A stretch of 64,000 nucleotides of DNA from a virus. The position numbers were made by a program, and so were the translations under genes. Positions 12,222 to 62,250 of the stretch are shown here, piece by piece. The stretch's first letter is position 1. Every line of letters begins with the position of its first letter. The notes under the pieces are model-generated. The model searched no databases, was not told where the DNA came from, and saw only the letters and a list, made by a program, of their open reading frames with translations. The stretch is taken from positions 5,640-69,639 of the IMG/VR virus record IMGVR_UViG_3300047157_000098. One strand, 5' to 3'.

Positions 12222-12249
12222 TATTATTACACGCTTTATCATATTATTA
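12222..12249 (-). promoter_or_regulatory. late-class promoter
   Basis: TAAT-N14-TGTAATAATA; the 14-mer AGCGTGTAATAATA is identical to the copy at 32567-32580. Confidence 0.7.
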
Positions 12250-12273
12250 AAGCGCTGTTGTCACTAACGTGTA

Positions 12274-13110
12274 TTACGGTGAACATATATTTATACTTGT
12301 CACAACACCGTTTAAATTTGAGAACGTATAATAAGCAAGACTTGTTCTTATATATCTATTTGTTTGAACTGTTGTACCACTAGAGTTAGTATACACTGTG
12401 TCACCTACTTGTGGTAAACTTGAGCTTCCATTATGCCAGTAATTTGTATTTATTGTCTGCGTCACATATAAACTTAACACCAGATTGCCCAGCGGAAGCA
12501 GAGAACTGTGTAACTGTTTGACAAGTGTTTACACTTGATACCGCACCGTTTGACCCTACTATAATATATTGAGTTGCTGATATTCTATAATGTCCGGACG
12601 ATAAATAAGGGTATGTACCACTATTCGATGAATAAGCAATATCCCCAACCGCGTATTAACGTAGCACTTCCATTGTGATAATAAGTTTGATTTTGGGTTG
12701 CACTACAAACTCCAGATACAGTGGATTGAACGCTAGAGCTACTAAAAGAACTTAAGCTACAAGTGTATAATTGTTTTACTTCTCCACTTCCACTATCAAA
12801 CCTATATAAACCTGTGCCTCCTGAGTATGACCAGTTGCATTACCCTTCCATAAATTATTGCTAGGATTATATTCGTTATCTACCTGCTGCATCTGTATAA
12901 ACAGTATCTCCTACTACAGGCGTAGAACCGCTTCCGTCGTGGTAATAAATTGAAGCATAAAAACTACCATCAAATATATAGTTACATGAATACGCTGCTG
13001 TTGCAGTTGTGCACACCGGAGTTAGTCATGTAGAAAGCAGGGCCAACTGGCGTACAGTCTTTATCGTAACCACGCCAGTCTGAAAATCTATATGGATAAG
13101 CTATAGGCAT
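12274..13110 (-). pseudogene. frameshifted three-repeat virion accessory protein
   Basis: Starts MPIAYPYRFSDWRGYDKDC; repeats YYHDGSGSTPVVGDTVYTDAAG / YYHNGSAT..VGDIAYSSNSGT / YWHNGSSSLPQVGDTVYTNSSGT fall in different frames. Confidence 0.6.
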
Positions 13111-13120
13111 AATTTAATTT

Positions 13121-13585
13121 TTAAGGGCATTGAGAACCGTTAGTAGTTACAACTCCAGATGAGCTTACGGAAATATTAGGACATTGACTTTGAAACTCCA
13201 AAAAATGTTCCTTGGCTCCATATCCAATACGAATGAGTTTGTGAAGCACCTGTCCAAGCTGTATATGATCCGCTTGCGTAAGTATATAAAACATCATTTG
13301 TTACTAAACCATTAATAGGGCTTCTTGTTGTGAAAACAGTTACGTTATATCCTGGCGTTGTTGCTGCGGTTAATGTTATTTGATGATAACCATCATGACT
13401 TATAGGATTTGGCGTACAGTCATCGTTTACCGTAGGGTAACTAACTGTAGATCCGTGAGATTACCACCATTAACCATGTCGTATAAAGATATAACACCCA
13501 TGCTTTGACTACCATTATAATCTCCGTGCTTTGCTTCTCTAGCCATCTTAAGCATAGACATTTGTCCACTAGTAGGTATCGCCAT
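13121..13585 (-). pseudogene. frameshifted tail-fibre accessory gene
   Basis: Starts MAIPTSGQMSMLKMAREAKHGDYNG, coupled to the fibre stop (TAATG); ends SVSSSGVVTTNGSQCP* in another frame. Confidence 0.55.
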
Positions 13586-32324: not shown

Positions 32325-32561
32325 TTAGGATTTTACTTCTCCTCTAGTATGTGTAGCTCTGTTATAAGCTATCGATGTTCTTCTTGTTGTTCCGTCCGCA
32401 AGATGATGAATATCACTGTCTGAACGTTGGCCTATACGCTGGTTTTCTGCACGTTTCTTTTTTCTAGCTGGACTGTTTGCCGCAGCCAAATCTCTAGCAC
32501 GCTTTGCAGCTAATGCTTCTCTTGATAATCCTTGTGAATTCCCTGCTCGTTTTGTTGCCAT
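32325..32561 (-). CDS. small basic protein with degenerate HNH-like motif
   Basis: 78 aa, R/K-rich, DIHH...NRA; first gene after the late promoter. Confidence 0.55.
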   Translation of the reverse strand: MATKRAGNSQGLSREALAAKRARDLAAANSPARKKKRAENQRIGQRSDSDIHHLADGTTRRTSIAYNRATHTRGEVKS

Positions 32562-32566: not shown

Positions 32567-32594
32567 TATTATTACACGCTCTGTTTTAAATTTA
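32567..32594 (-). promoter_or_regulatory. late-class promoter heading the 32-kb structural arm
   Basis: TAAA-N14-TGTAATAATA; ATG at 32561. Confidence 0.75.
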
Positions 32595-32857: not shown

Positions 32858-32890
32858 ACATACTAAATACGAGACTAAATGGATAATATA
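32858..32890 (+). promoter_or_regulatory. early-class promoter 1
   Basis: ACATACTAAATACGA-GACTAAA-TGGATAATATA; one of five copies. Confidence 0.8.
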
Positions 32891-32916
32891 AATGTAAATA
32901 AAATCTATTATGAATA

Positions 32917-32974
32917 AGATATTGAGAGACAGTGTGGAATGGTTTCTGTGAGTTCGATTCTCACCTACTCATCT
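32917..32974 (+). ncRNA. mini tRNA-like RNA (T-arm containing)
   Basis: T-arm GTGAG-TTCGATT-CTCAC, flanking TGAG/CTCA pairing, no D or anticodon arm; first element transcribed from promoter 1. Confidence 0.4.
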
Positions 32975-32993
32975 AACAATTAAAATAATTAAA

Positions 32994-33128
32994 ATGAAAA
33001 GAAAGTTTCAACACTTTGCAATCAATGCGATATTGGTTTCGCTTGCAACACTAGCATTCACAGGAATAATAACTATTATGTATCACTTGGCTTTTAATAA
33101 TCCAACAATAACTTACGGCGGATGGTAG
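32994..33128 (+). CDS. 44-aa single-TM early protein
   Basis: Manual translation MKRKFQHFAINAILVSLATLAFTGIITIMYHLAFNNPTITYGGW. Confidence 0.6.
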   Translation: MKRKFQHFAINAILVSLATLAFTGIITIMYHLAFNNPTITYGGW

Positions 33129-33540
33129 AACTACTTGACAAAATAGCACAAGAAACATACGGTGAATTTGGATTCGCTACATGTACTGACGAGCAACAAC
33201 TAGAAATAATAAGTAATAATTTAACAACTAAATAATATGCAGTGGATTTTAACATGCGAAAACGGTAAGCAAATAGATATGTCAAGCGATATACTAAAGC
33301 AAATGGAAAGAAAAATAACAAGACAAGATGTTCTTGAAAGAATTGAGTTTTATAAATCAACTAATAAAAAATAATAATATGTATAGAAAATATCAAACTA
33401 ATCAACAAGCGTGGGATGAAGTGACACGTAACTACAATGAATCACTAAGACGAACAGAAATCTGTAAAGAAATGTTTGGTCAAGAAAATCTAAAAGGTTT
33501 AACAGATGAGCAAAGAGAATCATTCTGGAAAGCAGTATAA
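33122..33540 (+). CDS. three tiny early ORFs (33122-33235, 33237-33374, 33379-33540)
   Basis: MVELLDKIAQETYGEFGFATC.., MQWILTCENGKQIDMS.., MYRKYQTNQQAWDEV..; tightly packed with A-rich leaders. Confidence 0.55.
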
Positions 33541-33541
33541 T

Positions 33542-33572
33542 ACAATCTAAATACGAACTGAGTTGGATAATA
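33542..33572 (+). promoter_or_regulatory. early-class promoter 2
   Basis: ACAATCTAAATACGA-ACTGAGT-TGGATAATA. Confidence 0.8.
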
Positions 33573-33580
33573 ATATAAAT

Positions 33581-34921
33581 ATGAATATGAAAACATTTAA
33601 ACAAGTAAACAAAACTACCATCAGAGTAAAAGATGGCGACAACTACTCAACCTATAAAGGCTATGATATTGGCTCTTTACCTCCAACATTTGGCTTCTGG
33701 TTTAATCCAGAAACAGAGAAAGAAGGTATTGGTGAATGGTTTAACTACAAAGGTTTAACTTATATACAAAAATAATAATAATATGACTAAAAGAAAATAC
33801 TTTGACGATTTAACTCTCGAGGAGATGTTTAAATCACATGACTGGACTTATATGTACGCTGATGACAATAGATATTACACATCAGGTAGAAGACAGAAAG
33901 AATTGATAGATAATAAAATAGAACAATCAGGTGGATGGTCACAAGATATTCTTAAACTACACAACGCTCATTGCCCAAAACCAATGCAGATCAGTGAAGA
34001 ATGGCTAGAAAATCATTTACTAAAACAATAAATATATGAAGACTATATATAAAGGTGATGCTCGTTATGAAAAAATAAAAGAGCAGATGGATTTACTAAA
34101 TATAACTGATGTAAGTACTGAAAAACAAATTAAAAACGGTACAATAATCTGGAGATTACCATACAAACTAAGAGGTAATTACGTAGAATATGGTGCTTTC
34201 TCTACAGGTTATGTAAGAAATCAAGGTAATCAGTGTCATTCTAACTGGCAATGTAACAAAAGAGTCAAAAGTGAACCTCAATATTATCCTGACTATAAAT
34301 GGTGCGATAAAACAAATCAAAGCATAGCGACAGGTAAATTTAATAGATACTACAGTAGAATATGTGTTTTAATACCTACAGAAATAGATAGATTAGAGTA
34401 TATGATGAAATATATAGTTAAAAATGAGTTTGTCAAGCGTGCTAAAACTTTAGAAAGAGATTACATACCAAGATGGAAGTATGATTACTTAAAAAAAGAA
34501 AAAGTACAAGAAACTATCAACGAAGTAACATTAACAGTAAACGGACAAAGATATAATATAATATAATATGGAAAAAAGTAAATTAAAAGAACTATACTTA
34601 GAACACCACGGTTCTACACTAGATACAGTAGATTTTAAAGGTGGTTATGATTTTATAATGAATCAAGAATACACTGCAGATGGCTATGACTTATTTTTAT
34701 GTCATGACGGTAAATCTGCTGTTTGTTTAAGTGAAGATGTATATTACTACTCTCATGATTTAACAGATGTACTCAAAAATGCTATACACGGCGCCCAGTC
34801 TATATACTGTGGTGAAGAGATATATGATGAGTGTTATATTAATGATGAGTGGGAAGAATGGTGTCTTGAAGACGGATTAGTAGAGTATAATGACGAAGAC
34901 GAACTAGTTATTACAGACTAA
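33581..34921 (+). CDS. four early hypothetical proteins (33581/33587-33775, 33783-34031, 34036-34566, 34568-34921)
   Basis: Head-to-tail ORFs; 33783 has a HDW.Y.YADD motif; the TTG start at 33563 in the track lies inside the promoter. Confidence 0.65.
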
Positions 34922-34945
34922 ATACGATTACCATTGGATAATATA
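34913..34945 (+). promoter_or_regulatory. early-class promoter 3
   Basis: ACAGACTAAATACGA-TTACCAT-TGGATAATATA. Confidence 0.8.
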
Positions 34946-34957
34946 ATAAACGAATAT

Positions 34958-35170
34958 ATGAATTGTAAAAAATGTAACAATACAATACCTCAACAGCGGC
35001 TAGCATTTGGTTATACTTCCTGCGTTAAATGTAGCACTACAGAAGCTTATGGTTGTGTTAATATCACTTACCACAAAACTGGCAACACTATCCAAATTAT
35101 GCCAAAAACCCAAGCAGCTAGAATACGTAAGCTATCCGCTCGTAGAGGTTACGGAACATGTTTAAGATAA
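34958..35170 (+). CDS. DksA/TraR-type C4 zinc-finger protein
   Basis: CKKCNNTIPQQRLAFGYTSCVKC matches Cx2C-x3-IPxxRL-x-Cx2C. Confidence 0.7.
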   Translation: MNCKKCNNTIPQQRLAFGYTSCVKCSTTEAYGCVNITYHKTGNTIQIMPKTQAARIRKLSARRGYGTCLR

Positions 35171-35384
35171 TAATATGAAAGAATACTACGAATTTAATAA
35201 TGAACAAGAGTACGAAGAGTACGCCCAGTTAATGTGGTTAATAAATAATAACAAATGAAAGAATATACAGTAACATATCTACCTCATATGAGAGAAGACA
35301 AAGAGTGGATCAATGTAAACGCTAAGTCTGAAGAAGATTTAGTACTTAATTTTAAAGCAGGAGTAATATTAAATATAGAGTAAA

Positions 35385-36027
35385 ATGAAAGAAAATGTAA
35401 GAGTAAATGGATGGGACTTTGAATATGTAAGTCAAGATGATGGCAATGACCAGTTCTATCAGTGTAGAGGTGAGGTAATGTATGATGACGAGCATGACCA
35501 AATACCTGAACCAGCGTTGTGGGATGCAGCGTTGAAGTTAGAAAAAGAATTAACTGAAGAAGGTTATAGATGTGATGCAAATCACAGTGAAAAAGGATGG
35601 GTTGAAGTATCAATATTTGGCAAGATATGAGTAAGTTAGACGAAATAATAGACAAAGAGTTAAAGATATTTGATAGATCAATAGTGGCTACACCAAGTGA
35701 TAGAGAAAAATTAGATGCCTTCGCGGCGGCTAATCATGGAGTTAATGATTTTTTATTAACGCAGATGGCTGTACAGTTGGGTTACGTAACAGCTTTAAAA
35801 TTTATAAAAGAAGAAGTAAACATATGAGTGATTCAGTAAAGAAATACTACGAAATGGTAGAAGACGGGGAAATAAAAGTAAACCCTGATAAAGTAAATCC
35901 TAGGTTAAGGTGTGAACAAAAAATACTAGACATAGGTCATGCTTTAAAAGAGTACGAAGGTAACGTCATAGATAAATGGCAGGTTATCAACAAGATAGAA
36001 GAAATAATGTCAAGGCTAGACGAGTAG
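35385..36027 (+). CDS. three small early hypothetical proteins (35385-35630, 35627-35827, 35824-36027)
   Basis: ATGA-coupled ORFs from the ORF track. Confidence 0.65.
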
Positions 36028-36096
36028 CTTAATTAGATGAGTTTGAAGTTGATCATGAAAAATAGGTTATATGATGGATTCTCATACATAAGTGAA

Positions 36097-36209
36097 TAGC
36101 TAGCAAAGGAAACTAGGTCAGGCAAAACATTGTACAAGTAAACGTTTTCACGAGCTTGTAGTGTAGATGGGCTACCGACGGGTATGAGGTTCGAATCCTC
36201 ACTAGTTAC
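36097..36209 (+). ncRNA. tRNA-like RNA of about 113 nt with non-canonical core
   Basis: Acceptor stem TAGCTAG/CTAGTTA, T-arm TGAGG-TTCGAAT-CCTCA, variable stem TACC-GACG-GGTA, long central hairpin TACAAGT..GCTTGTA. Confidence 0.55.
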
Positions 36210-36240
36210 AAACTAAATACGAATACAGTTGGATAATATA
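36208..36240 (+). promoter_or_regulatory. early-class promoter 4
   Basis: ACAAACTAAATACGA-ATACAGT-TGGATAATATA. Confidence 0.8.
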
Positions 36241-36254
36241 ATTAAATAATAAAT

Positions 36255-36745: not shown

Positions 36746-36757
36746 TGCTATACACAT

Positions 36758-36830
36758 TGCGCGGTAGAGCAGCTGGTAGCTCGTTGGGTTCATATCCCAA
36801 AAGTCGGAGGTTCGAGTCCTCCCTGCGCAC
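36758..36830 (+). tRNA. tRNA-Met(CAT), initiator type
   Basis: Cloverleaf TGCGCGG/CTGCGCA, D-arm GAGC/GCTC, anticodon stem TTGGG/CCCAA (three G-C pairs), loop TT-CAT-AT, T-arm GGAGG-TTCGAGT-CCTCC; CCA not encoded. Confidence 0.9.
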
Positions 36831-36844
36831 CTAAATAATAATAT

Positions 36845-37809: not shown

Positions 37810-37833
37810 ATACGAACGTAGTTGGATAATATA
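37801..37833 (+). promoter_or_regulatory. early-class promoter 5
   Basis: ACAAACTAAATACGA-ACGTAGT-TGGATAATATA; ATG follows 7 nt after TAAT. Confidence 0.8.
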
Positions 37834-40095: not shown

Positions 40096-40171
40096 GTATG
40101 ACAAATAAACTAAGAAAAAGATTAAACAAAAATAATAAAATTATTTTTTTAACATTAAAACCAAAGGGGAC

Positions 40172-40218
40172 TGTGACAACAGCCCTTAAGATATAACTAG
40201 TAACGGGCTTATGTCACA
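40172..40218. promoter_or_regulatory. dyad protein-binding site B overlapping the start codon of 40211..40846
   Basis: TGTGACA-N3-GCCC-N19-GGGC-N3-TGTCACA; shares TAAGA..CTAGTAA core with site A. Confidence 0.7.
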
Positions 40219-40846
40219 AGACAGAAATATAAAGTGGCTAAATAATAGACGCATCGTCTACAGGAGAGATCCTACTACCGATGTACCTACTATTGAGACA
40301 GAACAATATAAATACTACGCTGATGGTACATACCAATGTTATCACTTGTTTAATAGCAAGGCTAAGATAACTACGTATAAATCGTTAAAGTGGCATATGC
40401 TTGTATTGTATTATCTAAATGAAGATACAACACACGACTCGACTGGAGAAGGAGGTAGTATTGAACGAGTGTTTAGATTTATAGCTGATAAAGAAAATGG
40501 GTTTGTTACATTTTTTATTAAAAGCAGAATATTAGATGAAATGATAGAAAACGTTATGACAATAGGTGGTGAACCACCAGCTAATAAAATGCGTAAAGTA
40601 GTATTTAAACCCTACAATGGACTGAGTTTAAGTGAAAAACTTAGCATAGTAGGTAAATTAATAGGTAGATCTTCAGAAGTAGATGAAGAAGCAATCTACC
40701 AAACAATGTTAGATTTAAATGAGTTTGGAAAAAAGATTACAATAAGTAGGATAGCTGGTTTGCTCAACTGTTCTACTAGAACAATATATAGAAATATGAG
40801 CAATCAACTTAAAAACGAAAAAAAAATATTAAATGAAGAAATATAA
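40211..40846 (+). CDS. HTH DNA-binding protein, possibly replication initiator
   Basis: C-terminal KITISRIAGLLNCSTRTIYRNM HTH; layout resembles plasmid Rep C-terminal regions. Confidence 0.6.
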   Translation: MSQDRNIKWLNNRRIVYRRDPTTDVPTIETEQYKYYADGTYQCYHLFNSKAKITTYKSLKWHMLVLYYLNEDTTHDSTGEGGSIERVFRFIADKENGFVTFFIKSRILDEMIENVMTIGGEPPANKMRKVVFKPYNGLSLSEKLSIVGKLIGRSSEVDEEAIYQTMLDLNEFGKKITISRIAGLLNCSTRTIYRNMSNQLKNEKKILNEEI

Positions 40847-41597
40847 TATACCCGGTTATATAATCGATAAAGAAGATTTAAAACAATCGTTAGCTAGAAT
40901 ACCTGAACATGGAACAGACTATAATTTATATACTAGAGATCAACTTATAATTAAGTTTTGTCCATTGGCAGAGAATATAGCTAGAAAATTTTCAACTAGT
41001 CAACAAGCCTCTGGTGTTATGAGTATAAGAGATTTAATACAAGAGGGTAGAGCTGGCTTAACTAAAGCTGTTGATAGAATTGATTGGGAAAGACTAAATG
41101 AATCTGAAGATAAAGAAAAAACAATAAAAAGTTTTTTATCAAAGAGAATACGAGGTGCTATCCGTAGATCAATAGATATTAACAGAGGTGACATACGTAT
41201 ACCTGAACATAAATTAAACGAAATACGTAGAAACTTTGGCAAGGATAAAAAAATGGTGTCGATGTTTTTTAATAGTATATTTTTAAGCATAGATGATAAA
41301 CCTAATAATGATGAGAACATGGTATATCAGATACCAGACAAGTCTGAGCCTTATAATATGCAATTACTTAATATATATTTAACTGGTTTGTTAAAGAAAC
41401 ATTTAGATGATAGAGAGTATAATGTATTGAGACTTAGCTATGGATTAGATTGTGACAAGCATTCAGCAAAGCAAATTGCAACTGAATTAAACATCGAAGG
41501 ATCTAGCTCTTACGTGAGAGTTTCACAGCTAAAAAAGCAAGCGGTAGATAAGTTAATAGAAAACGTAGACCACTCGCAAGTGCTTGATTACCTATAA
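40833..41597 (+). CDS. phage sigma-70-family RNA polymerase sigma factor
   Basis: Region 2 PLAENIARKF..DLIQEGRAGLTKAVDRID..RIRGAIRRSID..IRIP; region 4 LDDREYNVLRLSYGL..KQIATEL..VRVSQLKKQAVDKL. Confidence 0.92.
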   Translation: MKKYNIPGYIIDKEDLKQSLARIPEHGTDYNLYTRDQLIIKFCPLAENIARKFSTSQQASGVMSIRDLIQEGRAGLTKAVDRIDWERLNESEDKEKTIKSFLSKRIRGAIRRSIDINRGDIRIPEHKLNEIRRNFGKDKKMVSMFFNSIFLSIDDKPNNDENMVYQIPDKSEPYNMQLLNIYLTGLLKKHLDDREYNVLRLSYGLDCDKHSAKQIATELNIEGSSSYVRVSQLKKQAVDKLIENVDHSQVLDYL

Positions 41598-41617: not shown

Positions 41618-41645
41618 TAAATTTACAAATCTATATGTAATTATA
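41618..41645 (+). promoter_or_regulatory. late/middle-class promoter for the replication operon
   Basis: TAAA-N14-TGTAATTATA immediately after the sigma gene. Confidence 0.7.
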
Positions 41646-41668
41646 TATATAGACCAAAAACCTTAGAT

Positions 41669-42223
41669 ATGAAAGAATTAAACCAAAAACTAGCAATAGT
41701 TCAGACTAAGCTAAAAACCAAGAAGACAAGCTATAACAGCTTCGGTAAATACTTTTTCCGAAAAGCTGAAGACATTCTTGAAGCTGTCAAACCATTTCTA
41801 ATCGAACAAGGCATTACGGTTAAAATAACCGAGGAGATGATCTCCGCAGATCCTGTTCCAATCATTCAATCAACGGCAACAATATCAGATGGCGATAATG
41901 CTATACACGCAACCGCAGTAGTAGGAGTAGACCTTAATCAAAAAGGTATGCAAACAGCGCAGCAGTTCGGTGCAGCCTCGTCTTATGGTAAGAAATATGC
42001 GTTAGGAAATTTATTTTTAATAGACGACACGGCTGATGCTGATAGTACTAATAAGCACGATTCAAAAGCTGTTAGTAAAATAAAACAAGCATCAAAACCA
42101 AACATAACAACAGCACAGTTAAGTAAGGCTGTAGACTATGTTAAATCAGGTGGTAAGCTCGAGGCTATAACTAACAAATACAATGTTTCTAAAGCTCAGT
42201 TGACTGAACTAACAACGTTATAA
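41669..42223 (+). CDS. erf: ERF-family ssDNA annealing protein
   Basis: Q.FGAASSYGKKYALGNLFLIDD..DAD. Confidence 0.85.
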   Translation: MKELNQKLAIVQTKLKTKKTSYNSFGKYFFRKAEDILEAVKPFLIEQGITVKITEEMISADPVPIIQSTATISDGDNAIHATAVVGVDLNQKGMQTAQQFGAASSYGKKYALGNLFLIDDTADADSTNKHDSKAVSKIKQASKPNITTAQLSKAVDYVKSGGKLEAITNKYNVSKAQLTELTTL

Positions 42224-50673: not shown

Positions 50674-50701
50674 AAAGGGAGCTTAACGGCTCCCTTTTTT
50701 T
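50674..50701. terminator. intrinsic terminator between convergent blocks
   Basis: AAAGGGAGC-TTAACG-GCTCCC-TTTTTTT. Confidence 0.85.
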
Positions 50702-52454: not shown

Positions 52455-55400
52455 TTACTTGATTATTTTCTTTTTTATTGTTTTCTTCTTTAAAGTTTTC
52501 TTTCTAATTACACCATCAGCTTTATCTTTAGCTTTTTCCACATCGTAATTCTCTATACCAACATCCCAAGTTGTCCAGCCTAATAACGTTGCTATTCTTT
52601 GCCAAGAAGAGTTTCTTTCATCTAAAGATGCTCTCACATTTCTAACCTTCTTTATAGCTCTATCTAAGGGTAGGTTTGTAACAGCAGATACTATGTTTCC
52701 AAAAGCATCATAAGTTGGATTATCAATATCAAATCCCATACCTTTAGGCCCAAACATTATTTTTTTATTAAACTTATATGTTTGTATTGCTGAGTATAGT
52801 TTTCTTAGTTTGGAGCCGATTGGTGGAGACAGGTTCACTGCTTCTATTACAGTATAAGTATGGTCTGCATTCCAACCTTTTTTCTCTTGCTCTATAAACT
52901 TCATTATCACATTTTTAATAGTAGAAACCGCAGCGCCGTATAAACCAGAACCTCTTAATATAGTGTCAGACATGCTATTAACTATTCTACTTTTCTTCTT
53001 GTCTAGCTTCAAATCCTCCTCTTCTTCTTCATCAGCAAACATCATGCCGAACAATGCGTTTTGTAAAGCAGCAAACACAAAGTTTTGTACAGCTCCATAG
53101 TATATAATTTTAGAAACGTTTGTTTTAAAATCACCCCTACCATTAACTAAGTCTCTCATAGCTTTTTTGGTTAACCTCATGTACTGCATTGGTGTGTTTT
53201 GGAAAGCTAATATAACTCTACCAAGTGGTCCAGCTTGTTGTTGTGATATTAAATCTGGTCTACTAGACTGCTGAGATTCTTCCGACACTTGAGCAAAGTC
53301 TTCAAAAGCTTTAGCCTCAGCTTCTTTCTTGCTTAAACCATTTTTTAAGTATGTGTTAACTCTATTCCTATACATAGATGCTCCACCAATAGCTATAGCA
53401 AAACTATCCGCTATTTGAGTAGGTGTAAAACCAAGTTTTAGTATATAAGCTAATACAGCACTTGCTTTGTTTTTAGCTCCCGAAGCAGCGTTAGCTATTT
53501 CTGCTTCATTAACATCTGTTTGTAAACCACTACGTCTTTGTTTTAACATGTCTGAATTAAATATCATAGCGAAGTCAGACCAAAACTGTTTTTGATTAGC
53601 AAAGGCTATAGCAGCTTTGATAGGGTTATTGTCTGACCAGTTAACAAAGTTTACAGCTGATAGTGTTTGTAATATAGCTGATCTCATATTCAAGAACATA
53701 ATAGCTCCAACAGAGTTGTTTACCCAATTCATCCAACGGTTAACAATTCTATTTTTACCAAACGATCTATTAGTACCGTTTTTCATACGGTATATCATAT
53801 CCTCTAAGGCTTCTCTAAAGTTACTACCATATATAGCCTCTATTTTATTTAAATTCTTTTTAGAAAATACAACATCTACATTTTCTGAAAACTCTTTTAG
53901 AAACTTTTTTCTACCTATTTTTTCAGAAATATCGTTTAAATCGGAAGCTATAGTTCCAGCTAACCAACTATCTGAGGGTGATATATAACCATCTTCTAGT
54001 TTAGTTATTCTACTTAAAGTATCTGCAAAAGCAACCATTTCTTTATTGCTGGAGACTATTTTAACTAACTCAACTTGGTCTTGTTTTGATAAACCAGGTA
54101 TTGGCATACCAAATTTACTCCACAAATAAACTCTTATAGCTTGCCCGTAAGTAAAATCCTTGTACTCTGTTTTCTTTCCAAGTAATTTTCTAACTTGTGG
54201 AAACGCTTTTCTCAAACCTAACCAGTCATTTGATATGCTTTGTTTAGCTACGTTTAAAGCAGCCATACCTCTAGCAAAAGGCTTTATTAAGTGCTTTTGG
54301 AAAAACTCCATTTGAGCTTCTCCTTTCTTACCTTTTGATAAAAAGTCGTACAATAAACCTATAAAATCCTCAGCTGACGGTGGTAAAAAATACTTCCATT
54401 TCGATCTTTTGCTTTGTCCTATTCTTTGTGCCGCTGCCTGAGAATACTCTTTAAAAGCCTCAACACCTTCAGATTCTTCTATTATATTGTTAAACTCAGA
54501 ATCTAGATCTTCTATAGAGAATTTAGCTTGCTGAACATCAGACTTAACATCAACAGTATCTAACACCTCTTGAACAGCTTTAACATTCTTATAAGCGTCG
54601 TCAGCAAAGTAAAAGTTATTATAACCCTCTGCTGCTTTGTTTAAAATCCAATCAGCTTTAGCTTTAGCCGTACCATCCGCTAAACCAGTTATATTGTTAA
54701 GAGGAATATTTAAACCTATACCTTTTAAAAACTTATGTATAGCATTTGCAGCCTCTGCTGGTCTAGCTGTTAAAACAAATATGTTTTTGTTACCGAACTT
54801 ACCTTGTCTTTTAGTGGCTAGATCAAACAGTGGACCTTTTCTACCATCTATAACCTTATTAAACTCACTAAAGTCATAAGAAGCTCCTTTCTCTGTTAAT
54901 TCAGCATCTCTTTTAGCAAACTCTGTAGCGTTTATCTTCATGACCTTACCGTTAGGCATGGTGACTATTATCTGGCTGTTAGTAACAGCTAGTGTGTCGT
55001 CAAAATCAAAAACACTTATACCTTTGTCAGGTTGGTTCATAGACCTTGCGTTGTCCATAGCTTTATCAGCTATACTAAGTTTTGTTACTTCTAGTGTTTT
55101 TTCTGCTACCTTGTCTCTAAATTCATTTGTTTTTTGAGATTCATTAGAGTATGCGTCAATATTGGTTCCACCAACAACATATATATCAGTTTTCTTGTTT
55201 TTAGGTAAAGCTTTTAGTCTACCTTTTTTAGACTGGTTTGTTTTACCTGCTAAATCTACTATATCCAAGTTATAATTTATGTCTAACCACTGTATGTGTT
55301 CAGCTAAGATGTCAGATACTTGGTTTATAGTTTCTGCTTTAGTTAGATTTTTAACATCCACCGAGGCAAGCTTTAACATTGTGTTTGAATTAGGAGATAA

Positions 55401-58400
55401 GTGTTCTCCTTTTTCCGATAACTTCTTTATAGCAGCATCTTCTATTTGTTGTAACGTAGCGTCTGGATTGCTATTTTTTGTTATTTTAAAAACTAAACTC
55501 CAACCAGGAGTTTGTTTCCAAGAATTAACATAAGCATCTCTAGCTTCTTTTTCGGTTTTATACTTACCATTTTTAGTAACGTTGGGTTTACTGTCCATAC
55601 CAAACTGAACTCCATCTTCAAACCTAATCAAATCAAGTCTTGTTAAAGCTCTAAGTCCATTAACAGCATTAGTTTGAAGCTGAAAGAAATGAAGCATAGA
55701 TGATTCAGATATTTTACCAGAACTGTACATATCTAAAACAGTACTTACAATGTGCTCAGCTAAAAGTAGGTTAGCTATGTTTGCTTTTTCTAACCTAGGT
55801 AGTATTGTCTCTTCAAAAAGTTTTATTTTCTCGTCTCTTTTGATATCCATTTTTTGAATATCTTTTATTTCTTGCATTATACCAGAGCCTGAATTCATAG
55901 GGGCAACATCTTCCATTACCAAAGCCTCTGGCAAAGTTGATTCTGTTTTAATACTTGTAGCTTTTAAAAAATCTTTATAAAAAGCACCCTCACTTCCATC
56001 ATTCTTTTTCTTTGCTGGATCTAAAACTCTATTTATATAACCCAAACCTTCAATGAATCTAGGAATATTAATAACAGCAGCACCTAGTACAGAAGCTAGT
56101 TTAAGCATGTCTTTTGAAAAAGCTTTTAAATCTTTTATAGAGCTAGTTTTTGCTTTTAAAGCGGACGTGTATTCAAACCTGCCTTGCTTTTTTATACCAG
56201 CTACAAAACCGTGGGCTTTAGCGTCGTTTATTAAACCAATGTCATATAGATATCTAACTACTTTAGGAACTTTAACTCCGTACTTAGAGATATCTTGCAT
56301 GTTACCATCTTCGTCTATTAAACTATCAAGATCCTTTTTTTGCACTTCTCTAACAAGCTTTGAGACCTCACTCATCTCTTGTTTAGTCAGGTCGAAGTCA
56401 ACGTCATTCTCACTTAAAGCAAACTTAGTGTTGGGGTCTCTGTTTATTTGTTTAGCTGTTTCCTCTACGTAATTATCAGCTTGCTCTCTTTCTAGTATCT
56501 CGTCAATAGCCTTTCTTCTTTCTTGAACATCTGGGTCTTTAACTACATCCATAGTAGCATCAAAAGCTAATTCTTCAGCTAAAGCCTCTGCTAAAGCATC
56601 TTTTCTAGTACCTTTAGTTGACGCTCCAACTTTGCTACCTATAAAATAAGATAACCACTCTGCTTTTGCTATCTTTCTTTTAGCAAAAATAGCGTTACCT
56701 TGTGGAGTTTTTTCTCTTAGCTGTTTACCATCTTTATCAAGCACTGGCTCTGCAAACTGTCTAAATCTTTTGTTTATAATCTCTTGTGATAATTTAGCGT
56801 ATATAGCTTCAAAATTATCTCTTAAAAACTGTTCTTTAATAGCTCTAGTACCTATAAGGTTTGCCATAGCTGTTTTCAACTCTACTCTAAAAGCTTTTTG
56901 CAGAGCTTTTTTAAACTCTTTGCTAGTTACAGCAGGTAGTCTAGTTCCAAACGTTTTTACAACAGCTCTTTTTATCTTGTTATAAAGATCGCTACCTTCT
57001 TCTATGTTTAGCTGTTTTCGTAATGATGGTTGTTCTACAGTCTCTTCAACAACCGTCTCCTCAGCCACAACACCTTTTGCTTCAGACACATCAGACGTAA
57101 ACTCTTTTTCGAACATGCTATCAGCTATCTCTATAGCTCTAGATGCTAGGTATTTATTTATGTAAGCAGCTAACGGCACGCCACTATCAGGATTGTACTT
57201 CATAACAAGGCCGTAAACACCTCTATTATCTATAAGCAACTGCTCTATAAAATCGTCTTTATAAGTTGTATAACCAGGCACGTCTCTATATTTACCAGCT
57301 ATTTTGTTGACCATACCTCTATATGCTTCTGTTATCTCAAAAGCCGCGTCTTTACCGCTCTTATTATATAGGTCTTGAACTTCGTTACTTTTTTCAAAAG
57401 CTCTAGATTCTTTTTTAACAGTTTCACTAACCTCTGTTTTAGCTTTTATAAGCTTGCCTTTAACTTTACCAGCAGCTACAGTGCTTATTCCTTTTCCAAG
57501 TTTACCTTTGGCTATACCAGTATTGTAGTCTTTTATAAAATTATAAACATCTCTACCATTGTTGAACTTAACAGCCACGCCTGTTGACTGCAATATTTTT
57601 CTTATTACATCACCAATCTTTGTGAATATATTTTCATTAAACTTTATATCTCCAGTTGCTAAAGCATCAGAAAACAAAGTAAGGATCTCTTCTGCAGCAT
57701 CTCCTTCTTTGTACTTACCCTCTTTATATAGTTTTTGATACTGCTCAATTCTTTTCTTGAATCTACTATTTTGAATTTGCTTAGCGTCTATATTGTTTAA
57801 GTAACCCATTAGTGACTTACCTAAAGCTTTTTGTGTGTCAGGGCTAAATTTAACAGCTTCAAATAAAACAGCATGAAGAAACTCATGTGCAGCTATATTT
57901 ACGTTGCCTTGTTTAGCAGCGACATCTTTGTTTATAAATATTATTTGTTTACCAGTGGCTGGGTCTTGAATAGCAAAACCTTGTTGCTTAGCTTCAGTTC
58001 TTAATTCTTTTAAGCTTTTTTTATTAGGATTATCATCATCAAGCTTATCATTCATCTCCTTGAGTCTCTTTAATATTGACTCAGTGTCGTTCTCAACTTG
58101 AAAACTAACATCATCTCCAAACATGTTTGTTGCTTCTTTAGCCAGCATTTCCATTTGCTCGTCAATCTTTTCAGCATTTTCTTTTTCAATGTAAGGATTT
58201 ACAATTTCGTTTTTCTTTGATAAAGAGTCTTGGTACTTAGCTTTTAATTTATCTAATTCAACTTTCTTTTCTTCTTTCGATAATGAATCATCGTTTTTAA
58301 TATCTTCAGCTTGGTTGACTAAGTTGTGTCTTACTCTAGCTTCTTCTACAAGAGCTTCTTTTTCTTCAGGAAGCATCTCGTCTATTCTTTTTATATCTCT

Positions 58401-60341
58401 AGCTAGTAACTCGTTGTTTTCTTTAACCAAGTTTGTTAGCTCTTCTTCGTAGTGACTTCTGTTTTTGCCATCTAAAGGTTTTGATAAAAGCTCATTAATT
58501 TCTTTTATCCTTTGAGCATTTTTACCTATTGTAGCTTTTGTAGCACCATGCTGAAAACCTGTTAAAATATTTATACCTAAGCCAGGTGTTTTATATACAA
58601 CTCCCGACATCCAAACACCACTAACAAAAGACTCTTTTAAACCTTCAGACCAGTGAACATCTTTACCTAAAACATACTTATCAGCTATGTTTTCTGAAAA
58701 TTGAGAAACCATTTCAGTAAAACCTTCTTCAATAGGATCGTATACTAACTGACCTAAACCCTTTTGTGTAGTTAAATTTCTAGTTAACCAAGCTTTAAAA
58801 CCTGTTTGTATTTTGTCTTGTACACCTAAAGCGTTTTTATACTTACTTAGTTGACCTAGCGATATTTTTTCACTAAGAGCCTCTGCTAAACCCGTAACGG
58901 TTGCTACCGTGTACATTTGTAAAGGTGAGTATTTAGCACCGTAAAGATCTATTTCTTTTTGCATAGACCTAAACTTCCCACCTGCTGACGTTACACCTAG
59001 TATTGGTAAAGCGTAAGGTCCTGTTGTTAACATTATAGCGGTGTTAGGTAACTGGCTGGCTGTTGTAAAAGAAGCCCATTCTCCAAAATCTTCCCAAGAT
59101 TGTATATCGCTAAGCTCTTGCGGTTTTTCTAAACCATTTCTAACTTGATCTAGAAAACCATCAGCTTTACCGATAACATTCTTTCTCATTTCATCTTTGT
59201 ACTCAGCGTATCGTACTACTGGTTTTAAGAAATCCGGAAGCCCATCATCTAAACTAGAGTCTATAGCTTGTATTAACCTAGCTGGGTCTGTAAATTTTCT
59301 AATATATCTGTACTCAGCTTCCTCAAGATTTAAACCTATTTCAGAAAGAGCTATAGCTGTTTGCCCAACAACATTTGTTCCCCATTGATAATTTCTATCT
59401 ACAATATCTAGATATTTAGTAAGCTCTTCGTTACTATCTCCAATATCTTCTTGTTGGCTCTGTATGTTTAATATACTACCGATATGCTTCTCACCTTCTT
59501 TCGCGAGTAAATCGTAAGCTTCTTTACCTTTGTTAAACTCCTCTTGAGTGGTGTAATCTTGATTTCTTATAGCCTCCAACCTAGCAGCAATGTCTTCTAG
59601 CGACTTGGTATGGTATTTAAACCTAATTATATTGTTTTCAGTTTTTTTATTAAGACCAGATGTTATCTCTTCAAGTTCATCCGCTTTAGCGTTTTGATTA
59701 GATCCTTTCATAAACCAGGTCCAATCTAAGTCTTCAACAGATTCTTCTACATTTCTTTCCCAGCTAGAGTTTCTAAGATCTTCTCTATATAAATCTGTAG
59801 CTACTTCATTTGCGTTAGCAAGGTCGTCTTGAGACAACTCCTCTACTTTAACATCCTTTTCTTTTGCTATCTTTTTTTTGGCCTCAGGTATGTATTTTTC
59901 TTGAGCATCTAAATAGCTTTGCTCTTCGTTACTAATAATTGAGTTTTCTTCTTCGTCATCAAAATACTCTACAGCGTTTATAACTTTATCAACAACCCAT
60001 TTACCAGCTCCGCTATCCCAAAACCAACTAGTGGGTGAACCAGGGGTGCTTGTTAAAGCTGTCTGAACAGTTTTAGATGCAAGCTTTTGAGAAATCTTTC
60101 CATCTTGAACTTTATAGTTAACCATCTCGCTAGCTTTCCTATCATTGTTTTCAGTTTGAAGATCTGTTTCGTCGTGAGAGTTTGATTCTGTGACTAGTTC
60201 GTCTATTCTACGAGAAGTTTCTGAAGACAACTCCTCAGAGCTATAAGGAACAGCTTGAGGATATTTTTGTAGAAATAAATCTTGTTTAGCGGGGTTTATA
60301 CTGTGTACTTTGCCGTCAACAATGAACTTTAGTTTATCCAT
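52455..60341 (-). CDS. giant multidomain virion (ejection/polyvalent) protein: zincin + sigma-like + HAD domains
   Basis: 2628 aa; AHEFLH (about aa 819), sigma region-2-like segment (aa 998-1074), HAD FDFDDT..TAR..K..ADD (aa 1754-1940), helical C-terminal domain. Confidence 0.75.
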   Translation of the reverse strand: MDKLKFIVDGKVHSINPAKQDLFLQKYPQAVPYSSEELSSETSRRIDELVTESNSHDETDLQTENNDRKASEMVNYKVQDGKISQKLASKTVQTALTSTPGSPTSWFWDSGAGKWVVDKVINAVEYFDDEEENSIISNEEQSYLDAQEKYIPEAKKKIAKEKDVKVEELSQDDLANANEVATDLYREDLRNSSWERNVEESVEDLDWTWFMKGSNQNAKADELEEITSGLNKKTENNIIRFKYHTKSLEDIAARLEAIRNQDYTTQEEFNKGKEAYDLLAKEGEKHIGSILNIQSQQEDIGDSNEELTKYLDIVDRNYQWGTNVVGQTAIALSEIGLNLEEAEYRYIRKFTDPARLIQAIDSSLDDGLPDFLKPVVRYAEYKDEMRKNVIGKADGFLDQVRNGLEKPQELSDIQSWEDFGEWASFTTASQLPNTAIMLTTGPYALPILGVTSAGGKFRSMQKEIDLYGAKYSPLQMYTVATVTGLAEALSEKISLGQLSKYKNALGVQDKIQTGFKAWLTRNLTTQKGLGQLVYDPIEEGFTEMVSQFSENIADKYVLGKDVHWSEGLKESFVSGVWMSGVVYKTPGLGINILTGFQHGATKATIGKNAQRIKEINELLSKPLDGKNRSHYEEELTNLVKENNELLARDIKRIDEMLPEEKEALVEEARVRHNLVNQAEDIKNDDSLSKEEKKVELDKLKAKYQDSLSKKNEIVNPYIEKENAEKIDEQMEMLAKEATNMFGDDVSFQVENDTESILKRLKEMNDKLDDDNPNKKSLKELRTEAKQQGFAIQDPATGKQIIFINKDVAAKQGNVNIAAHEFLHAVLFEAVKFSPDTQKALGKSLMGYLNNIDAKQIQNSRFKKRIEQYQKLYKEGKYKEGDAAEEILTLFSDALATGDIKFNENIFTKIGDVIRKILQSTGVAVKFNNGRDVYNFIKDYNTGIAKGKLGKGISTVAAGKVKGKLIKAKTEVSETVKKESRAFEKSNEVQDLYNKSGKDAAFEITEAYRGMVNKIAGKYRDVPGYTTYKDDFIEQLLIDNRGVYGLVMKYNPDSGVPLAAYINKYLASRAIEIADSMFEKEFTSDVSEAKGVVAEETVVEETVEQPSLRKQLNIEEGSDLYNKIKRAVVKTFGTRLPAVTSKEFKKALQKAFRVELKTAMANLIGTRAIKEQFLRDNFEAIYAKLSQEIINKRFRQFAEPVLDKDGKQLREKTPQGNAIFAKRKIAKAEWLSYFIGSKVGASTKGTRKDALAEALAEELAFDATMDVVKDPDVQERRKAIDEILEREQADNYVEETAKQINRDPNTKFALSENDVDFDLTKQEMSEVSKLVREVQKKDLDSLIDEDGNMQDISKYGVKVPKVVRYLYDIGLINDAKAHGFVAGIKKQGRFEYTSALKAKTSSIKDLKAFSKDMLKLASVLGAAVINIPRFIEGLGYINRVLDPAKKKNDGSEGAFYKDFLKATSIKTESTLPEALVMEDVAPMNSGSGIMQEIKDIQKMDIKRDEKIKLFEETILPRLEKANIANLLLAEHIVSTVLDMYSSGKISESSMLHFFQLQTNAVNGLRALTRLDLIRFEDGVQFGMDSKPNVTKNGKYKTEKEARDAYVNSWKQTPGWSLVFKITKNSNPDATLQQIEDAAIKKLSEKGEHLSPNSNTMLKLASVDVKNLTKAETINQVSDILAEHIQWLDINYNLDIVDLAGKTNQSKKGRLKALPKNKKTDIYVVGGTNIDAYSNESQKTNEFRDKVAEKTLEVTKLSIADKAMDNARSMNQPDKGISVFDFDDTLAVTNSQIIVTMPNGKVMKINATEFAKRDAELTEKGASYDFSEFNKVIDGRKGPLFDLATKRQGKFGNKNIFVLTARPAEAANAIHKFLKGIGLNIPLNNITGLADGTAKAKADWILNKAAEGYNNFYFADDAYKNVKAVQEVLDTVDVKSDVQQAKFSIEDLDSEFNNIIEESEGVEAFKEYSQAAAQRIGQSKRSKWKYFLPPSAEDFIGLLYDFLSKGKKGEAQMEFFQKHLIKPFARGMAALNVAKQSISNDWLGLRKAFPQVRKLLGKKTEYKDFTYGQAIRVYLWSKFGMPIPGLSKQDQVELVKIVSSNKEMVAFADTLSRITKLEDGYISPSDSWLAGTIASDLNDISEKIGRKKFLKEFSENVDVVFSKKNLNKIEAIYGSNFREALEDMIYRMKNGTNRSFGKNRIVNRWMNWVNNSVGAIMFLNMRSAILQTLSAVNFVNWSDNNPIKAAIAFANQKQFWSDFAMIFNSDMLKQRRSGLQTDVNEAEIANAASGAKNKASAVLAYILKLGFTPTQIADSFAIAIGGASMYRNRVNTYLKNGLSKKEAEAKAFEDFAQVSEESQQSSRPDLISQQQAGPLGRVILAFQNTPMQYMRLTKKAMRDLVNGRGDFKTNVSKIIYYGAVQNFVFAALQNALFGMMFADEEEEEDLKLDKKKSRIVNSMSDTILRGSGLYGAAVSTIKNVIMKFIEQEKKGWNADHTYTVIEAVNLSPPIGSKLRKLYSAIQTYKFNKKIMFGPKGMGFDIDNPTYDAFGNIVSAVTNLPLDRAIKKVRNVRASLDERNSSWQRIATLLGWTTWDVGIENYDVEKAKDKADGVIRKKTLKKKTIKKKIIK

Positions 60342-60352: not shown

Positions 60353-61588
60353 TTATTGAAATTCGGGTTCTTCTACAACGTCTTCTTCTGGACTAGCACC
60401 AGGCCAATAGGCATTGTCTATACCAGCGTATCTGTATATATCAAATATTGAGTTTGGATCTTTAGGGTCTAAAGTTGCTTCAACCTGATATTTGTCACCA
60501 GCACTTTTCAAGATGTGTATTTGACCTTCGTCTGCTTGAATTTTGTACGATGCTGGCATATACCTGTTTAACATTGTAAAATCAGTTTCTGCCGTTACAT
60601 CTGCACTCCAGTGCGCGTTTAAAGACTTCATTTTACTTTCAGCTTTTTTATGAGCAACTGTTTTCTTTGAACCACTTCCACCACCTCCTGTGCTATTTTG
60701 TTTTGCAGCTGCACCATTTTGTGCTTGAGTGTTCATTACATTCATAAAGTGATCTACTATTTTCTTTTCAACAGCATCTCTCTGCATAGGGTCATTTAAT
60801 TCTTCATCAGTAATACCAGGTATACCGCCACGATTAAAGAAATCATCACGAGCTAAAGATTTTAAAGTAGCAATACCACCTTTTTCTATCATGTTGTATA
60901 AGTTGTTTTCATACATCATTCTAGTAGCAGAGTTTAAAGGTATACCAGCTTTATATATTTGATTAGACATTTTCATAATAGCATCACCACTAGCGTAGTC
61001 TTTATTAAAGTAATCAGGTAAGTCACCAAAATTAGTAACACCTTCTTCTGTTAAAAAACCTATATTACCATCCTCACCAATCTCTATATCTAATTCGTCT
61101 GTGTACACGCTTGTAAGTAGACTCATCTCGCTAGTGTTGTTACCTTTGCTATACAAGCCTTCTAACATACTTTCAGCAACTTCCTTTTTATTAGCGCCGA
61201 ACATGTCGAATTGATTCTTTAAGTTTTTAAAACTATTTTTTACAGAATTCATTTTAGATACAGCAGCAATATACTCATCACTACCTGACTCGTACTCACC
61301 AATATTCATAGCTTCATCAGCGTAAGCTTGTTTGCCAGCTGTTAAGAAAGAAGATATTTTATCTCTATATTTACCAGGTATTTGTGAAACGTCAAAATCA
61401 GCAGGTAGACTATTCATGTAGCTATCTATCTTAGCTTCATTGTTTCTGCGCTCCATTTTTGCTTCGTACTCCGCATTAGCTATAGCGTTTGGATCACGAC
61501 CTTGCATTAAACCTTGATTAAAAGCTTTACCGTGATCTTGAAACTGTTTATTAACTAACGCTGCGCCTTTTACTAATTGTGAATTCAT
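60353..61588 (-). CDS. putative internal virion/ejection protein
   Basis: 411 aa helical protein between pilot-like and giant protein genes. Confidence 0.55.
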   Translation of the reverse strand: MNSQLVKGAALVNKQFQDHGKAFNQGLMQGRDPNAIANAEYEAKMERRNNEAKIDSYMNSLPADFDVSQIPGKYRDKISSFLTAGKQAYADEAMNIGEYESGSDEYIAAVSKMNSVKNSFKNLKNQFDMFGANKKEVAESMLEGLYSKGNNTSEMSLLTSVYTDELDIEIGEDGNIGFLTEEGVTNFGDLPDYFNKDYASGDAIMKMSNQIYKAGIPLNSATRMMYENNLYNMIEKGGIATLKSLARDDFFNRGGIPGITDEELNDPMQRDAVEKKIVDHFMNVMNTQAQNGAAAKQNSTGGGGSGSKKTVAHKKAESKMKSLNAHWSADVTAETDFTMLNRYMPASYKIQADEGQIHILKSAGDKYQVEATLDPKDPNSIFDIYRYAGIDNAYWPGASPEEDVVEEPEFQ

Positions 61589-61599
61589 ATTTTATTATT

Positions 61600-62205
61600 T
61601 TAACCTTTACTAGCTATACCACCTATTACGTCTTCAGCAACACCTGCAGCTCCACCTATACCACTCATTATACTAGCTGTGGCTTGATCTCTAGCTGCGT
61701 TTGCGGCACCTAGCCTCTGTTGTGACATACCTAACATAGTTTCTGTTTTATCTTTTTCAGCAGCTCTAGCATTCTCAGCACCTTGTAATTCAGCTCTTTG
61801 ATTAGAACCAGCTTGTCTAGCTGCAGCCATTTGATTTCTTGATTCTTGAGCAGCAATATCAGCAGAGGCAGCTTGTGTATTTGATGTGGCTTGTTGAGCC
61901 ATAGCTTGAGCAAGTCCAGCGATACCAGATCCACCAGCAGCTTGGTTCATGCCACCCATTACGTTTGCTAAATTCTGTTCGTTCTTTTGATTAGCCATGT
62001 TGGAAGCTTGTTGATTGATTGTTAAGTCTTCCATAGTGTTTTCCATGTTAGCATACAGGTTAGACGTGTCTAAACCTTCGTAACGTTGTTTGTTCTTGTC
62101 AAACTCTTTTTGAGCTGCTGCTTGCTCTCTTTTTCTTTTACCGCTACCGATAATACCGGAAGCTATTGACGTTGCGGCTCCAACCGCTGCTCCTATTGGG
62201 ATCAT
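61600..62205 (-). CDS. putative ejection/pilot protein
   Basis: A/G/Q-rich with hydrophobic glycine-rich ends (GAAVGAATSIASGIIG). Confidence 0.6.
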   Translation of the reverse strand: MIPIGAAVGAATSIASGIIGSGKRKREQAAAQKEFDKNKQRYEGLDTSNLYANMENTMEDLTINQQASNMANQKNEQNLANVMGGMNQAAGGSGIAGLAQAMAQQATSNTQAASADIAAQESRNQMAAARQAGSNQRAELQGAENARAAEKDKTETMLGMSQQRLGAANAARDQATASIMSGIGGAAGVAEDVIGGIASKG

Positions 62206-62222
62206 ATTCTTTTATTTATTAT

Positions 62223-62250
62223 TATAATTACACTTTTTTATGTTTATTTA
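62223..62250 (-). promoter_or_regulatory. late-class promoter for the ejection-protein operon
   Basis: TAAA-N14-TGTAATTATA; ATG at 62205. Confidence 0.7.

Follow-up and report, generated by a model that had tools for sequence, protein, structure and literature searches.

The 64,000-nucleotide (nt) stretch of DNA analysed here, called the window below, covers bases 5640–69639 of the 69,639-bp IMG/VR virus record IMGVR_UViG_3300047157_000098, which is rated complete with both ends inside a gene, and its G+C content is approximately 35%. It carries four copies of the motif TAAW-N14-TGTAATWATA (W, A or T; N, any nucleotide), each in front of an operon, and a gene for a phage sigma factor, whose product probably reads these sites as promoters. 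The large terminase was 63% identical to that of an uncultured podovirus (MW202828.1), 44% to those of the Flavobacterium 'elemo' phages and 38% to that of Cellulophaga phage phi38:1 (Pervagoviridae), the relatives pointing to a host from the phylum Bacteroidetes. The plus strand block at 33.3–50.7 kb includes small early open reading frames (ORFs) and genes for a ligase, a denV-like protein, a helix-turn-helix (HTH) protein and the sigma factor, together with ERF, exonuclease, primase-helicase, ThyA, MazG and RNR. All other genes are carried by the minus strand: GroEL/ES, holin, tail fibres, terminase, portal, virion proteins and a giant protein of 2628 amino acids (aa). The sites and the sigma gene are as follows.

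12222–12249, minus strand: post-early site 1, TAAT-N14-TGTAATAATA, 35 nt upstream of a short broken ORF leading into the terminase/portal/head block

32567–32594, minus strand: post-early site 2, TAAA-N14-TGTAATAATA, then 5 nt and the ATG of a 78-aa ORF (32325–32561); heads the GroEL/lysis/tail arm

41618–41645, plus strand: post-early site 3, TAAA-N14-TGTAATTATA, 21 nt past the sigma stop codon; heads ERF (41669–42223), exonuclease, primase-helicase, ThyA, MazG and RNR

62223–62250, minus strand: post-early site 4, TAAA-N14-TGTAATTATA; heads the ORFs 61600–62205 and 60353–61588 and then the 2628-aa protein

40833–41597, plus strand: phage sigma factor of 254 aa, group-3/FliA-like, with regions 2, 3.0 and 4 and with matches in Pfam, PDB and PHROG

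The full motif matched the window exactly four times against a mean of 0.03 in shuffled sequences, and none of 100 shuffles reached four. The 10-mer core TGTAATWATA alone was not significant (four found, 1.51 expected, four being reached in 8 of 100 shuffles), so that the significance sits in the composite motif and its placement: 4/4 sites are intergenic and have the same orientation as the next gene. A fifth core present in the whole 69,639-bp record lies outside the window (genome 836–845, plus strand), antisense within a gene and with no TAAW upstream. An earlier sequence-only reading of this DNA had placed the motif at these four positions and strands, and had taken it for a second promoter class heading the operons listed above; the positions proved exact, and the intergenic placement, the co-orientation and the conservation in relatives described below agree with such a role. 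Its designation of the class as late fitted the virion operons; since the replication operon is headed as well, the class is called here post-early, not strictly late (the label "late-type" being retained for the motif).

Two of the sites have peculiar downstream sequences. The first gene after site 1 (11818–12188, minus strand) is broken into three short ORFs in different frames (12090–12188, 11999–12142 and 11818–11988), which might reflect a frameshift, decay of the gene or a fault in the assembly. Only site 3 has a conserved downstream extension, TATATATA(G/C)AC(C/T)AAA (window 41646–41660; orthologs in loci L006–L063), absent from the three virion-operon sites, and this extension may separate middle from late use; the sequence TATATATAGAC, conserved downstream of the site-3 orthologs, or the hairpin-like CTGTGACAAnAG element ahead of the HTH gene might play such a part too.

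A second, early class of sites with the motif TAAA-N14-GATAAT was found in the same window, with five matches at 32864–37830, all on the plus strand (0.47 expected; none of the shuffles reached five). This class, also proposed in the sequence-only reading, was thereby confirmed, and it is conserved in relatives.

32864–37831, plus strand: five early-class sites (starts 32864, 33548, 34919, 36214 and 37807), ACnnAC-TAAATACGA-N8-GGATAATA, all five reading ACnnAC-TAAATACGA-N8-GGATAATATAA

Pooling of distinct sites across relatives (60 late and 83 early) gave the consensus ttTAAAt-N-aatgTGTAATtATAtatatA for the late-type and tACAAa-TAAATACGA-N8-GGATAATAtaaat for the early class. Upstream of GATAATA, the block TAAATACGA is lineage-specific, being CACGGACTTA in genomes G013–G015 and ATACGTTACA in G011 with GATAATA unchanged, and the late-type TAAA and core persist in lineages with a replaced early upstream block.

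The register of the two classes was established by tabulating the first ATG after the motif. An ATG exactly 5 nt after ...ATA opened a real ORF at 8/8 late and 15/16 early sites. An ATG 3 nt after ...ATA, found in the early class only, opened a real ORF in 0/24 cases; in 16 of these distinct sites (for example at 32889–32897 in the window, and in relatives) the ATG past GATAATA stands directly before a stop (ATGTAA), representing either a conserved start-stop or a part of the initial transcribed sequence. With this 5-nt step from ...ATA to a real ATG common to the two classes, the early GATAAT aligns with the late AATWAT and not with TGTAAT, which leaves a common 3' core AT(A/T)ATA in one register and a distance from TAAA to the hexamer of 14 nt in the early versus 17 nt in the late class. 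The string TAAA-N16-TAAT, on which a shared geometry of the two classes had been postulated, is literally present in both, but counted from the start codon its TAAT is shifted by 3 nt between the classes. The 5-nt spacing fits the canonical distance from -10 to +1 of the sigma-70 family; on this geometry the A of the ATG would fall at +1, so that leaderless mRNAs are predicted.

The 254-aa product of 40833–41597 matched Pfam Sigma70_r4 with 26.1 bits (cut-off 24.1) at residues 190–241 and Sigma70_r2 with 22.4 bits, just below the cut-off of 24. Sixty-eight sigma chains in the PDB matched its residues ~31–143, the best being FliA 1rp3 (2.5e-7), and it matched phrog_351 at 5.5e-19. Thirty-six homologs, aligned with a mean column identity of 73%, showed the conserved elements DLIQEG..GL..AVD, SFLSKRIRGAIRR, RIPEH and the HTH of region 4. 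Region 2.4 has RIRGA, as in FliA, and the RIPEH helix of region 3.0 has the His that contacts the extended -10 element in sigma-70. With regions 2 and 4 thus recognised by Pfam, PDB and PHROG, the earlier identification of this gene as a sigma factor was upheld: to judge from its sequence it encodes a real sigma-70-family factor, for which binding to core RNA polymerase and initiation can be predicted. A tblastn search of 50,697 named phage records gave no relatives of this sigma except two faecal fragments, and Pfam detected no second sigma among the 65 other ORFs.

The gene directly upstream is coupled to the sigma gene in position.

40211–40846, plus strand: 211-aa protein with a C-terminal HTH; AlphaFold2 (AF2) model with a predicted local distance difference test (pLDDT) score of 85; residues 154–211 match HTH domains at Z ~6

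It overlaps the sigma start by 14 nt (40833–40846), an arrangement shared with most related loci and suggestive of coupled translation, and in eight loci only a short ORF stands in its place beside the sigma gene. The HTH protein was also considered as a second sigma and rejected: Foldseek returned nothing at E<=0.001 and a wide search matched the C-terminal HTH only. The pair is preceded at ~40160–40210 (+), as well as in G005, G013 and G014, by an element CTGTGACAAnAG(G/C), then a TATATAAC-like sequence and then TAGTAAGGGGCT-ATG; the CTGTGACAAnAG element is hairpin-like in the window, and related GTGACA copies lie upstream of sites 1 and 2. TGTGACA was dismissed as a third promoter class, with eight found in the window and 9.35 expected.

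Primary-sigma promoters of Bacteroidetes have the consensus -33 TTTG / -7 TAnnTTTG. In the window neither TAnnTTTG (94 found, 91 expected) nor sigma-70-like pairs (76 against 83 expected) were enriched. In the 50 nt before each gene start, the motifs were counted as follows.

Eleven sigma-encoding genomes, TAnnTTTG: 1, 5, 0, 1, 0, 0, 3, 3, 1, 1, 1 (expected ~2.4–3.4)

Eleven sigma-encoding genomes, late core: 5, 4, 3, 4, 2, 1, 2, 4, 3, 2, 4 (expected 0.2–0.6)

Sigma-less MW202828.1: TAnnTTTG 11 (~2.5 expected), late core 0

Sigma-less phi38:1: TAnnTTTG 8 (~2.5 expected), late core 0

Thus, the Bacteroidetes-type promoter is kept in the sigma-less relatives and is not enriched in the window or in the 11 sigma-encoding genomes, and where the sigma is present the host-type late promoters are replaced by TGTAATWATA. 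Both sigma-less phages are devoid of both phage promoter classes. In MW202828.1, TAnnTTTG stands before late genes and the early genes have a different, palindromic motif: in this freshwater phage (L084/L085, 44.5–50 kb) a perfect 16-nt palindrome, GTGTCGTTAACGACAC, lies 25–35 nt upstream of at least seven early genes.

A protein search with the sigma gave 58 IMG/VR loci (57–92% identity), 56 of which, with a full sigma end, were counted (the partial L059 and L061 were left out). Within 90 nt after the sigma stop the full late-type motif was present in 48/56 loci, the core with TTTAAC in three, an early-type promoter in three and neither in two. Since at three loci the early-type promoter occupies exactly the position of the late site, the comparison shows the two motif types doing the same job at the same place, that is, as interchangeable putative promoters. 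Among ten further complete genomes, the site upstream of ERF was full in seven, reduced to the core in one, of early type in one and absent from one. Sites 1, 2 and 4 were kept in the nearer relatives, which make up a part of these ten genomes: the site 1 ortholog has the full motif in G001, the site 2 ortholog has it in G001, G002 and G010 and a TGTGATTAT variant in G003, and the site 4 ortholog is full in G010, reduced to the core in G003, has one mismatch in G001 and has no counterpart within 75 nt in either G004 or G005.

The operon behind site 4 includes the giant protein, which bears on the proposal of a virion-embedded sigma for the early class.

52455–60341, minus strand: 2628-aa giant protein of the site-4 operon, with no Pfam, PDB or PHROG family

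57045–57392, minus strand: sigma-2-like domain of the giant protein (residues ~984–1099), a predicted fold

The giant protein is probably a virion or ejection protein, its residues 293–586 resembling, at 25% identity (E 2e-8), the gp101 of phi38:1, whose annotation is 'structural protein'. It was rejected as a polymerase, there being no Pfam, PDB or PHROG match and no DxDxD that giant proteins from six genomes have in common. By eye, a zincin-like HExxH can be seen at ~815–825, some 170 residues before the domain, and a HAD-like DxDxT at ~1775–1785, both with no Pfam match.

The AF2 model of residues ~984–1099 had a pLDDT of 84. Almost all of its top 50 Foldseek matches were sigma factors (E 0.46–1.9, probability up to 0.98), and structural re-alignment to sigma factors gave Z 7.3–10.0, moderate for a helical domain. 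In a Foldseek-independent search of 48,161 chains the top 15 were all sigma factors, the first non-sigma chain being at rank 16; Z was 9.4 against SigB and 8.8 against T4 gp55 (7d7d_F), with a root-mean-square deviation of 2.6 A over 100 residues. ESM features of the domain scored 0.96–0.97 to viral 'sigma factor' and Sigma70_r2 clusters. The sequence comparisons gave faint signals: BLASTP of the embedded domain against the free sigma gave E 0.029, their hhalign alignment was in register at a probability of 3.3%, a profile search of the PDB brought up sigma chains only at E 0.24–0.97, and 4/36 homologous segments matched Sigma70_r2 at E<=1, the best at a sub-threshold 0.0096. The window copy itself found nothing in Pfam (including PF04542) or in PDB sequence searches, and a phage-sigma hidden Markov model (HMM) scored below 5 bits on all giant segments. 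Judged mainly by the modelled fold, the giant protein very likely contains a sigma-2-like domain. No Sigma70_r4 or HTH family was found after it in 12 downstream segments. The claim of two related sigma factors is weakened, the relation between the free sigma and the embedded domain being at the fold level only and no sigma-4 region having been found with the latter.

The segment recurs in 722 protein clusters, nearly all of them giant proteins, and was found in none of the named phages. The free sigma is also encoded in 10/10 contigs picked for the giant segment, and the domain was not detected in the sigma-less MW202828.1 or phi38:1. Of 11 complete genomes, eight had it clearly and G005 ambiguously; it went undetected in G001 and G002, whose giant proteins gave no sigma-2 signal by BLAST, two HMMs, Pfam or ESM features; a faintly similar segment in G001 had no usable match by ESM features or Pfam. 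The N-terminal ~1,700 residues of the G001 giant protein (L064 351–5528, minus strand) are unrelated to those of the window (compared with 55092–60341), and the C-terminal ~850 residues are common to all 10 genomes at 40–53% identity, which looks like module swapping within one gene. Both G001, which is the closest relative and whose sigma is 92% identical, and G002 carry the same TAAATACGA...GATAATA early promoters, and the role of the domain at early promoters is doubtful because these promoters are shared by genomes lacking a detectable domain. The idea of a virion-embedded sigma reading the early class is weakened by this result.

The four sites are best explained as promoters of a phage-specific post-early (middle/late) class. 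Each would consist of a TGTAAA-type -35-like element, (T/A)(G/T)TAAA, a 17-bp spacer ending in an extended -10 element of the TGn type ('TGT') and the -10 hexamer AAT(A/T)AT (AATWAT) followed by A. Transcription would start 7 nt past the hexamer, i.e., at the A of the ATG where this follows ...ATA after 5 nt, as at site 2, whose transcript is predicted to be leaderless. The most likely reader would be the host RNA polymerase core with the phage sigma 40833–41597. The class is assigned to this sigma because the host-type late promoters are replaced where the sigma is present and because of the gene order, in which the early promoters are followed by the sigma gene and this directly by site 3; we regard the assignment as reasonably probable. 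With the sigma gene at the end of the early plus strand block, early transcription would make the sigma, which would then turn on the replication operon and the three virion operons, including that of the giant protein. The early class, with its variable upstream block and invariant GATAATA, would be read by something already present at infection, the candidates being a host alternative factor, the embedded sigma-2-like domain, a packaged free sigma or something else. The analysis establishes the motif with its placement and conservation, the family of the sigma and the correlation with the loss of host-type promoters; from these we infer the firing of the sites, their start positions, their timing and the factor.

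Several observations weigh against this interpretation. Gene order and co-occurrence, on which the sigma was assigned to the class, give a correlative argument: the early class accompanies the sigma as well, and profiling alone cannot tell which class the sigma reads; the proposal that gene 40833 serves the late class thus holds as far as the presence of the sigma tracks the loss of host-type promoters and the gain of the late class. RIRGA and the FliA -10 consensus (GCCGATAA) are no closer to the late hexamer than to the early GATAAT, and with the 3' core AT(A/T)ATA common to both classes and in one register, one factor might serve for the two. No late-class site was recognised in G011, which has a divergent sigma (E 1e-13). 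Six RNA runs had small shares of the phage, and the four analysed gave only low-depth contigs of 90–640 nt, in which starts, ends and strand were unreadable and which say nothing either way on expression.

The full model of the sequence-only reading is a special case of the explanation preferred here, in that a virion-carried sigma-2-like domain would enter with the DNA, bind the host core and read the early class, the free sigma would read the late class, and operon 4 would remake the giant protein. It draws on the sigma-2 fold predicted at high pLDDT, the sigma factors topping three structure searches, the ESM features close to viral sigma and Sigma70_r2 clusters, an early region without host-type promoters, and the resemblance of the giant protein to a phi38:1 protein annotated as structural. 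It would also be in line with the free sigma encoded in all ten contigs with the giant segment, the domain being undetected in the two sigma-less phages, and with the HExxH upstream of the domain, as in the processed polyvalent proteins described in a survey (PMC5512222). Set against this are the early promoters shared by G001 and G002, in which the N-terminal 1,700 aa of the giant protein are unrelated or the segment is missing and no sigma-2 signal was found, the ambiguous G005, the lack of sigma-4 or HTH after the domain in 12 segments, sub-threshold sequence evidence (nothing in Pfam for the window copy, 4/36 homologs at E<=1) and a virion location that is itself predicted, which together make the model rather unlikely. 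We hold just as doubtful the wider scheme of a clade of abundant, uncultured marine flavobacterial podophages without host promoters running a closed two-step circuit, in which an injected sigma-2 module (or other injected factor) would capture the host core polymerase at GATAATA and so give the FliA-like sigma, and this would act at TGTAATWATA promoters, often leaderless, the giant-protein operon included.

That both classes have one 3' hexamer in common and stand equally far, at 5 nt, from real start codons would also suit a free sigma, packaged or at low basal level, that reads the core AT(A/T)ATA in both classes with accessory proteins such as the HTH protein 40211–40846 setting the timing. 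This sigma is the only complete one found in all 11 genomes, and the HTH gene is coupled to it in most loci. However, such a scheme has a bootstrapping problem, the sigma gene lying downstream of early promoters and its packaging being only supposed; the distinct -12/-15 and -35 parts are separately conserved across the clade, and some loci have no HTH gene beside the sigma, so that we consider it improbable. The roles of the classes might also be reversed, with the FliA-like sigma reading GATAAT as a middle class and the host polymerase with another phage factor reading TGTAATWATA. The FliA/sigma-28 promoter consensus is TAAA-N15-GCCGATAA, of which GATAA is the -10 core, and region 2.4 of the phage sigma has the RIRGA of FliA. 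Neither class has this -10 as such, the late 8-mer being GTAATWAT and the early GATAAT standing 14 nt, not 18 nt, from TAAA, and flavobacteria are not known to have a flagellar regulon. Moreover, the first small ORFs beside the divergent region have GATAAT sites at their head, upstream of the sigma gene, where no other promoter type is present that could make the sigma first, and the sigma-less relatives use the host TAnnTTTG upstream of late genes exactly where the clade has TGTAATWATA, leaving the reversal little chance. That the sites are another conserved intergenic signal (an operator or a processing, replication or packaging signal) and not promoters is hardly credible from their makeup: each has two parts at a fixed spacing, always points the same way as the genes downstream, keeps a constant 5 nt to start codons and can be exchanged in place with the other promoter class.

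Among the remaining features of the window, two stretches that look like a tRNA 3' half, with a T-arm of the GGTTCGAATCC type, occur on the plus strand at 32930–32970 and 36164–36213, one closely following and the other closely preceding early promoters. They were called by neither ARAGORN nor Rfam, the sole call being a tRNA-Met at 36758–36831. The two convergent arms are separated by a further element.

50674–50697, strand not given: terminator-like hairpin with a T-run, between the convergent arms

As in FliA promoters, the late class has a -35 TAAA with an 8-mer beginning 15 nt after it, and the best solved relative of the sigma is FliA 1rp3; unlike in those promoters the late -10 is GTAATWAT, not GCCGATAA, and the factor is phage-encoded. 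Phage sigma factors that switch the host polymerase to late genes are known from SPO1, T4, phiEco32 and 7-11, and in these phages infection is known to begin at host-type promoters. According to one account, gp36 of phiEco32 and gp47 of Salmonella phage 7-11 steer the host RNA polymerase to middle/late promoters, with the consensus tAATGTAtA for gp36 and GTAAtg-16-aCTA for gp47 and with start sites 6–9 bp from the element, and late transcription follows host-sigma-70 early promoters (PMC8948821). The phage studied here is similar to both in being a podophage with a sigma-70-family factor in the early/middle arm and a phage-specific motif upstream of late operons, and to 7-11 also in its bipartite motif, the GTAA-type -35 of the latter resembling TGTAAA here. 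In contrast to both, this clade shows no host-type promoters, its consensus differs and the class also heads replication genes.

The embedded domain superposes, as a model, on T4 gp55, a minimal late sigma consisting of sigma-2 only. Its location in a giant protein of a virion operon recalls the injected polymerases (N4 virion RNA polymerase and gp66 of crAss-like phages) and the polyvalent proteins (bioRxiv 10.1101/2020.03.07.982082; PMC5512222), but unlike in these polymerases no polymerase motif was found in the giant protein, and its injection and function are predicted only. For the crAss-like phi14:2, the former source ascribes early transcription, for which it reports no common motif, to the virion polymerase, and has the host polymerase read the middle promoters (bioRxiv 10.1101/2020.03.07.982082). 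The word 'sigma' is absent from the main text of the polyvalent-protein survey (PMC5512222), and the text of the phi38:1 transcriptome paper contains neither 'promoter' nor 'sigma'. A literature search on promoters and sigma factors in Cellulophaga phages found none, and one on injected or virion sigma gave nothing on point among the titles listed.

The eleven complete genomes of this widespread marine phage group show no host-type promoters and have two conserved phage-specific classes, with the sigma-less relatives, which have host promoters at the same operons, as a natural control. The group is thus a compact, testable system in which to ask by what route a phage of Bacteroidetes frees itself from the primary sigma of its host, which factor initiates the very first transcripts and if an ejected protein contributes to this through a sigma-like domain, and the promoter models allow annotation of temporal classes in hundreds of uncultured relatives. 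The phage sigma switch itself is known from other phages; new here is its combination with two phage-specific promoter classes and no host-type promoters, and the first step of the infection programme is potentially novel.

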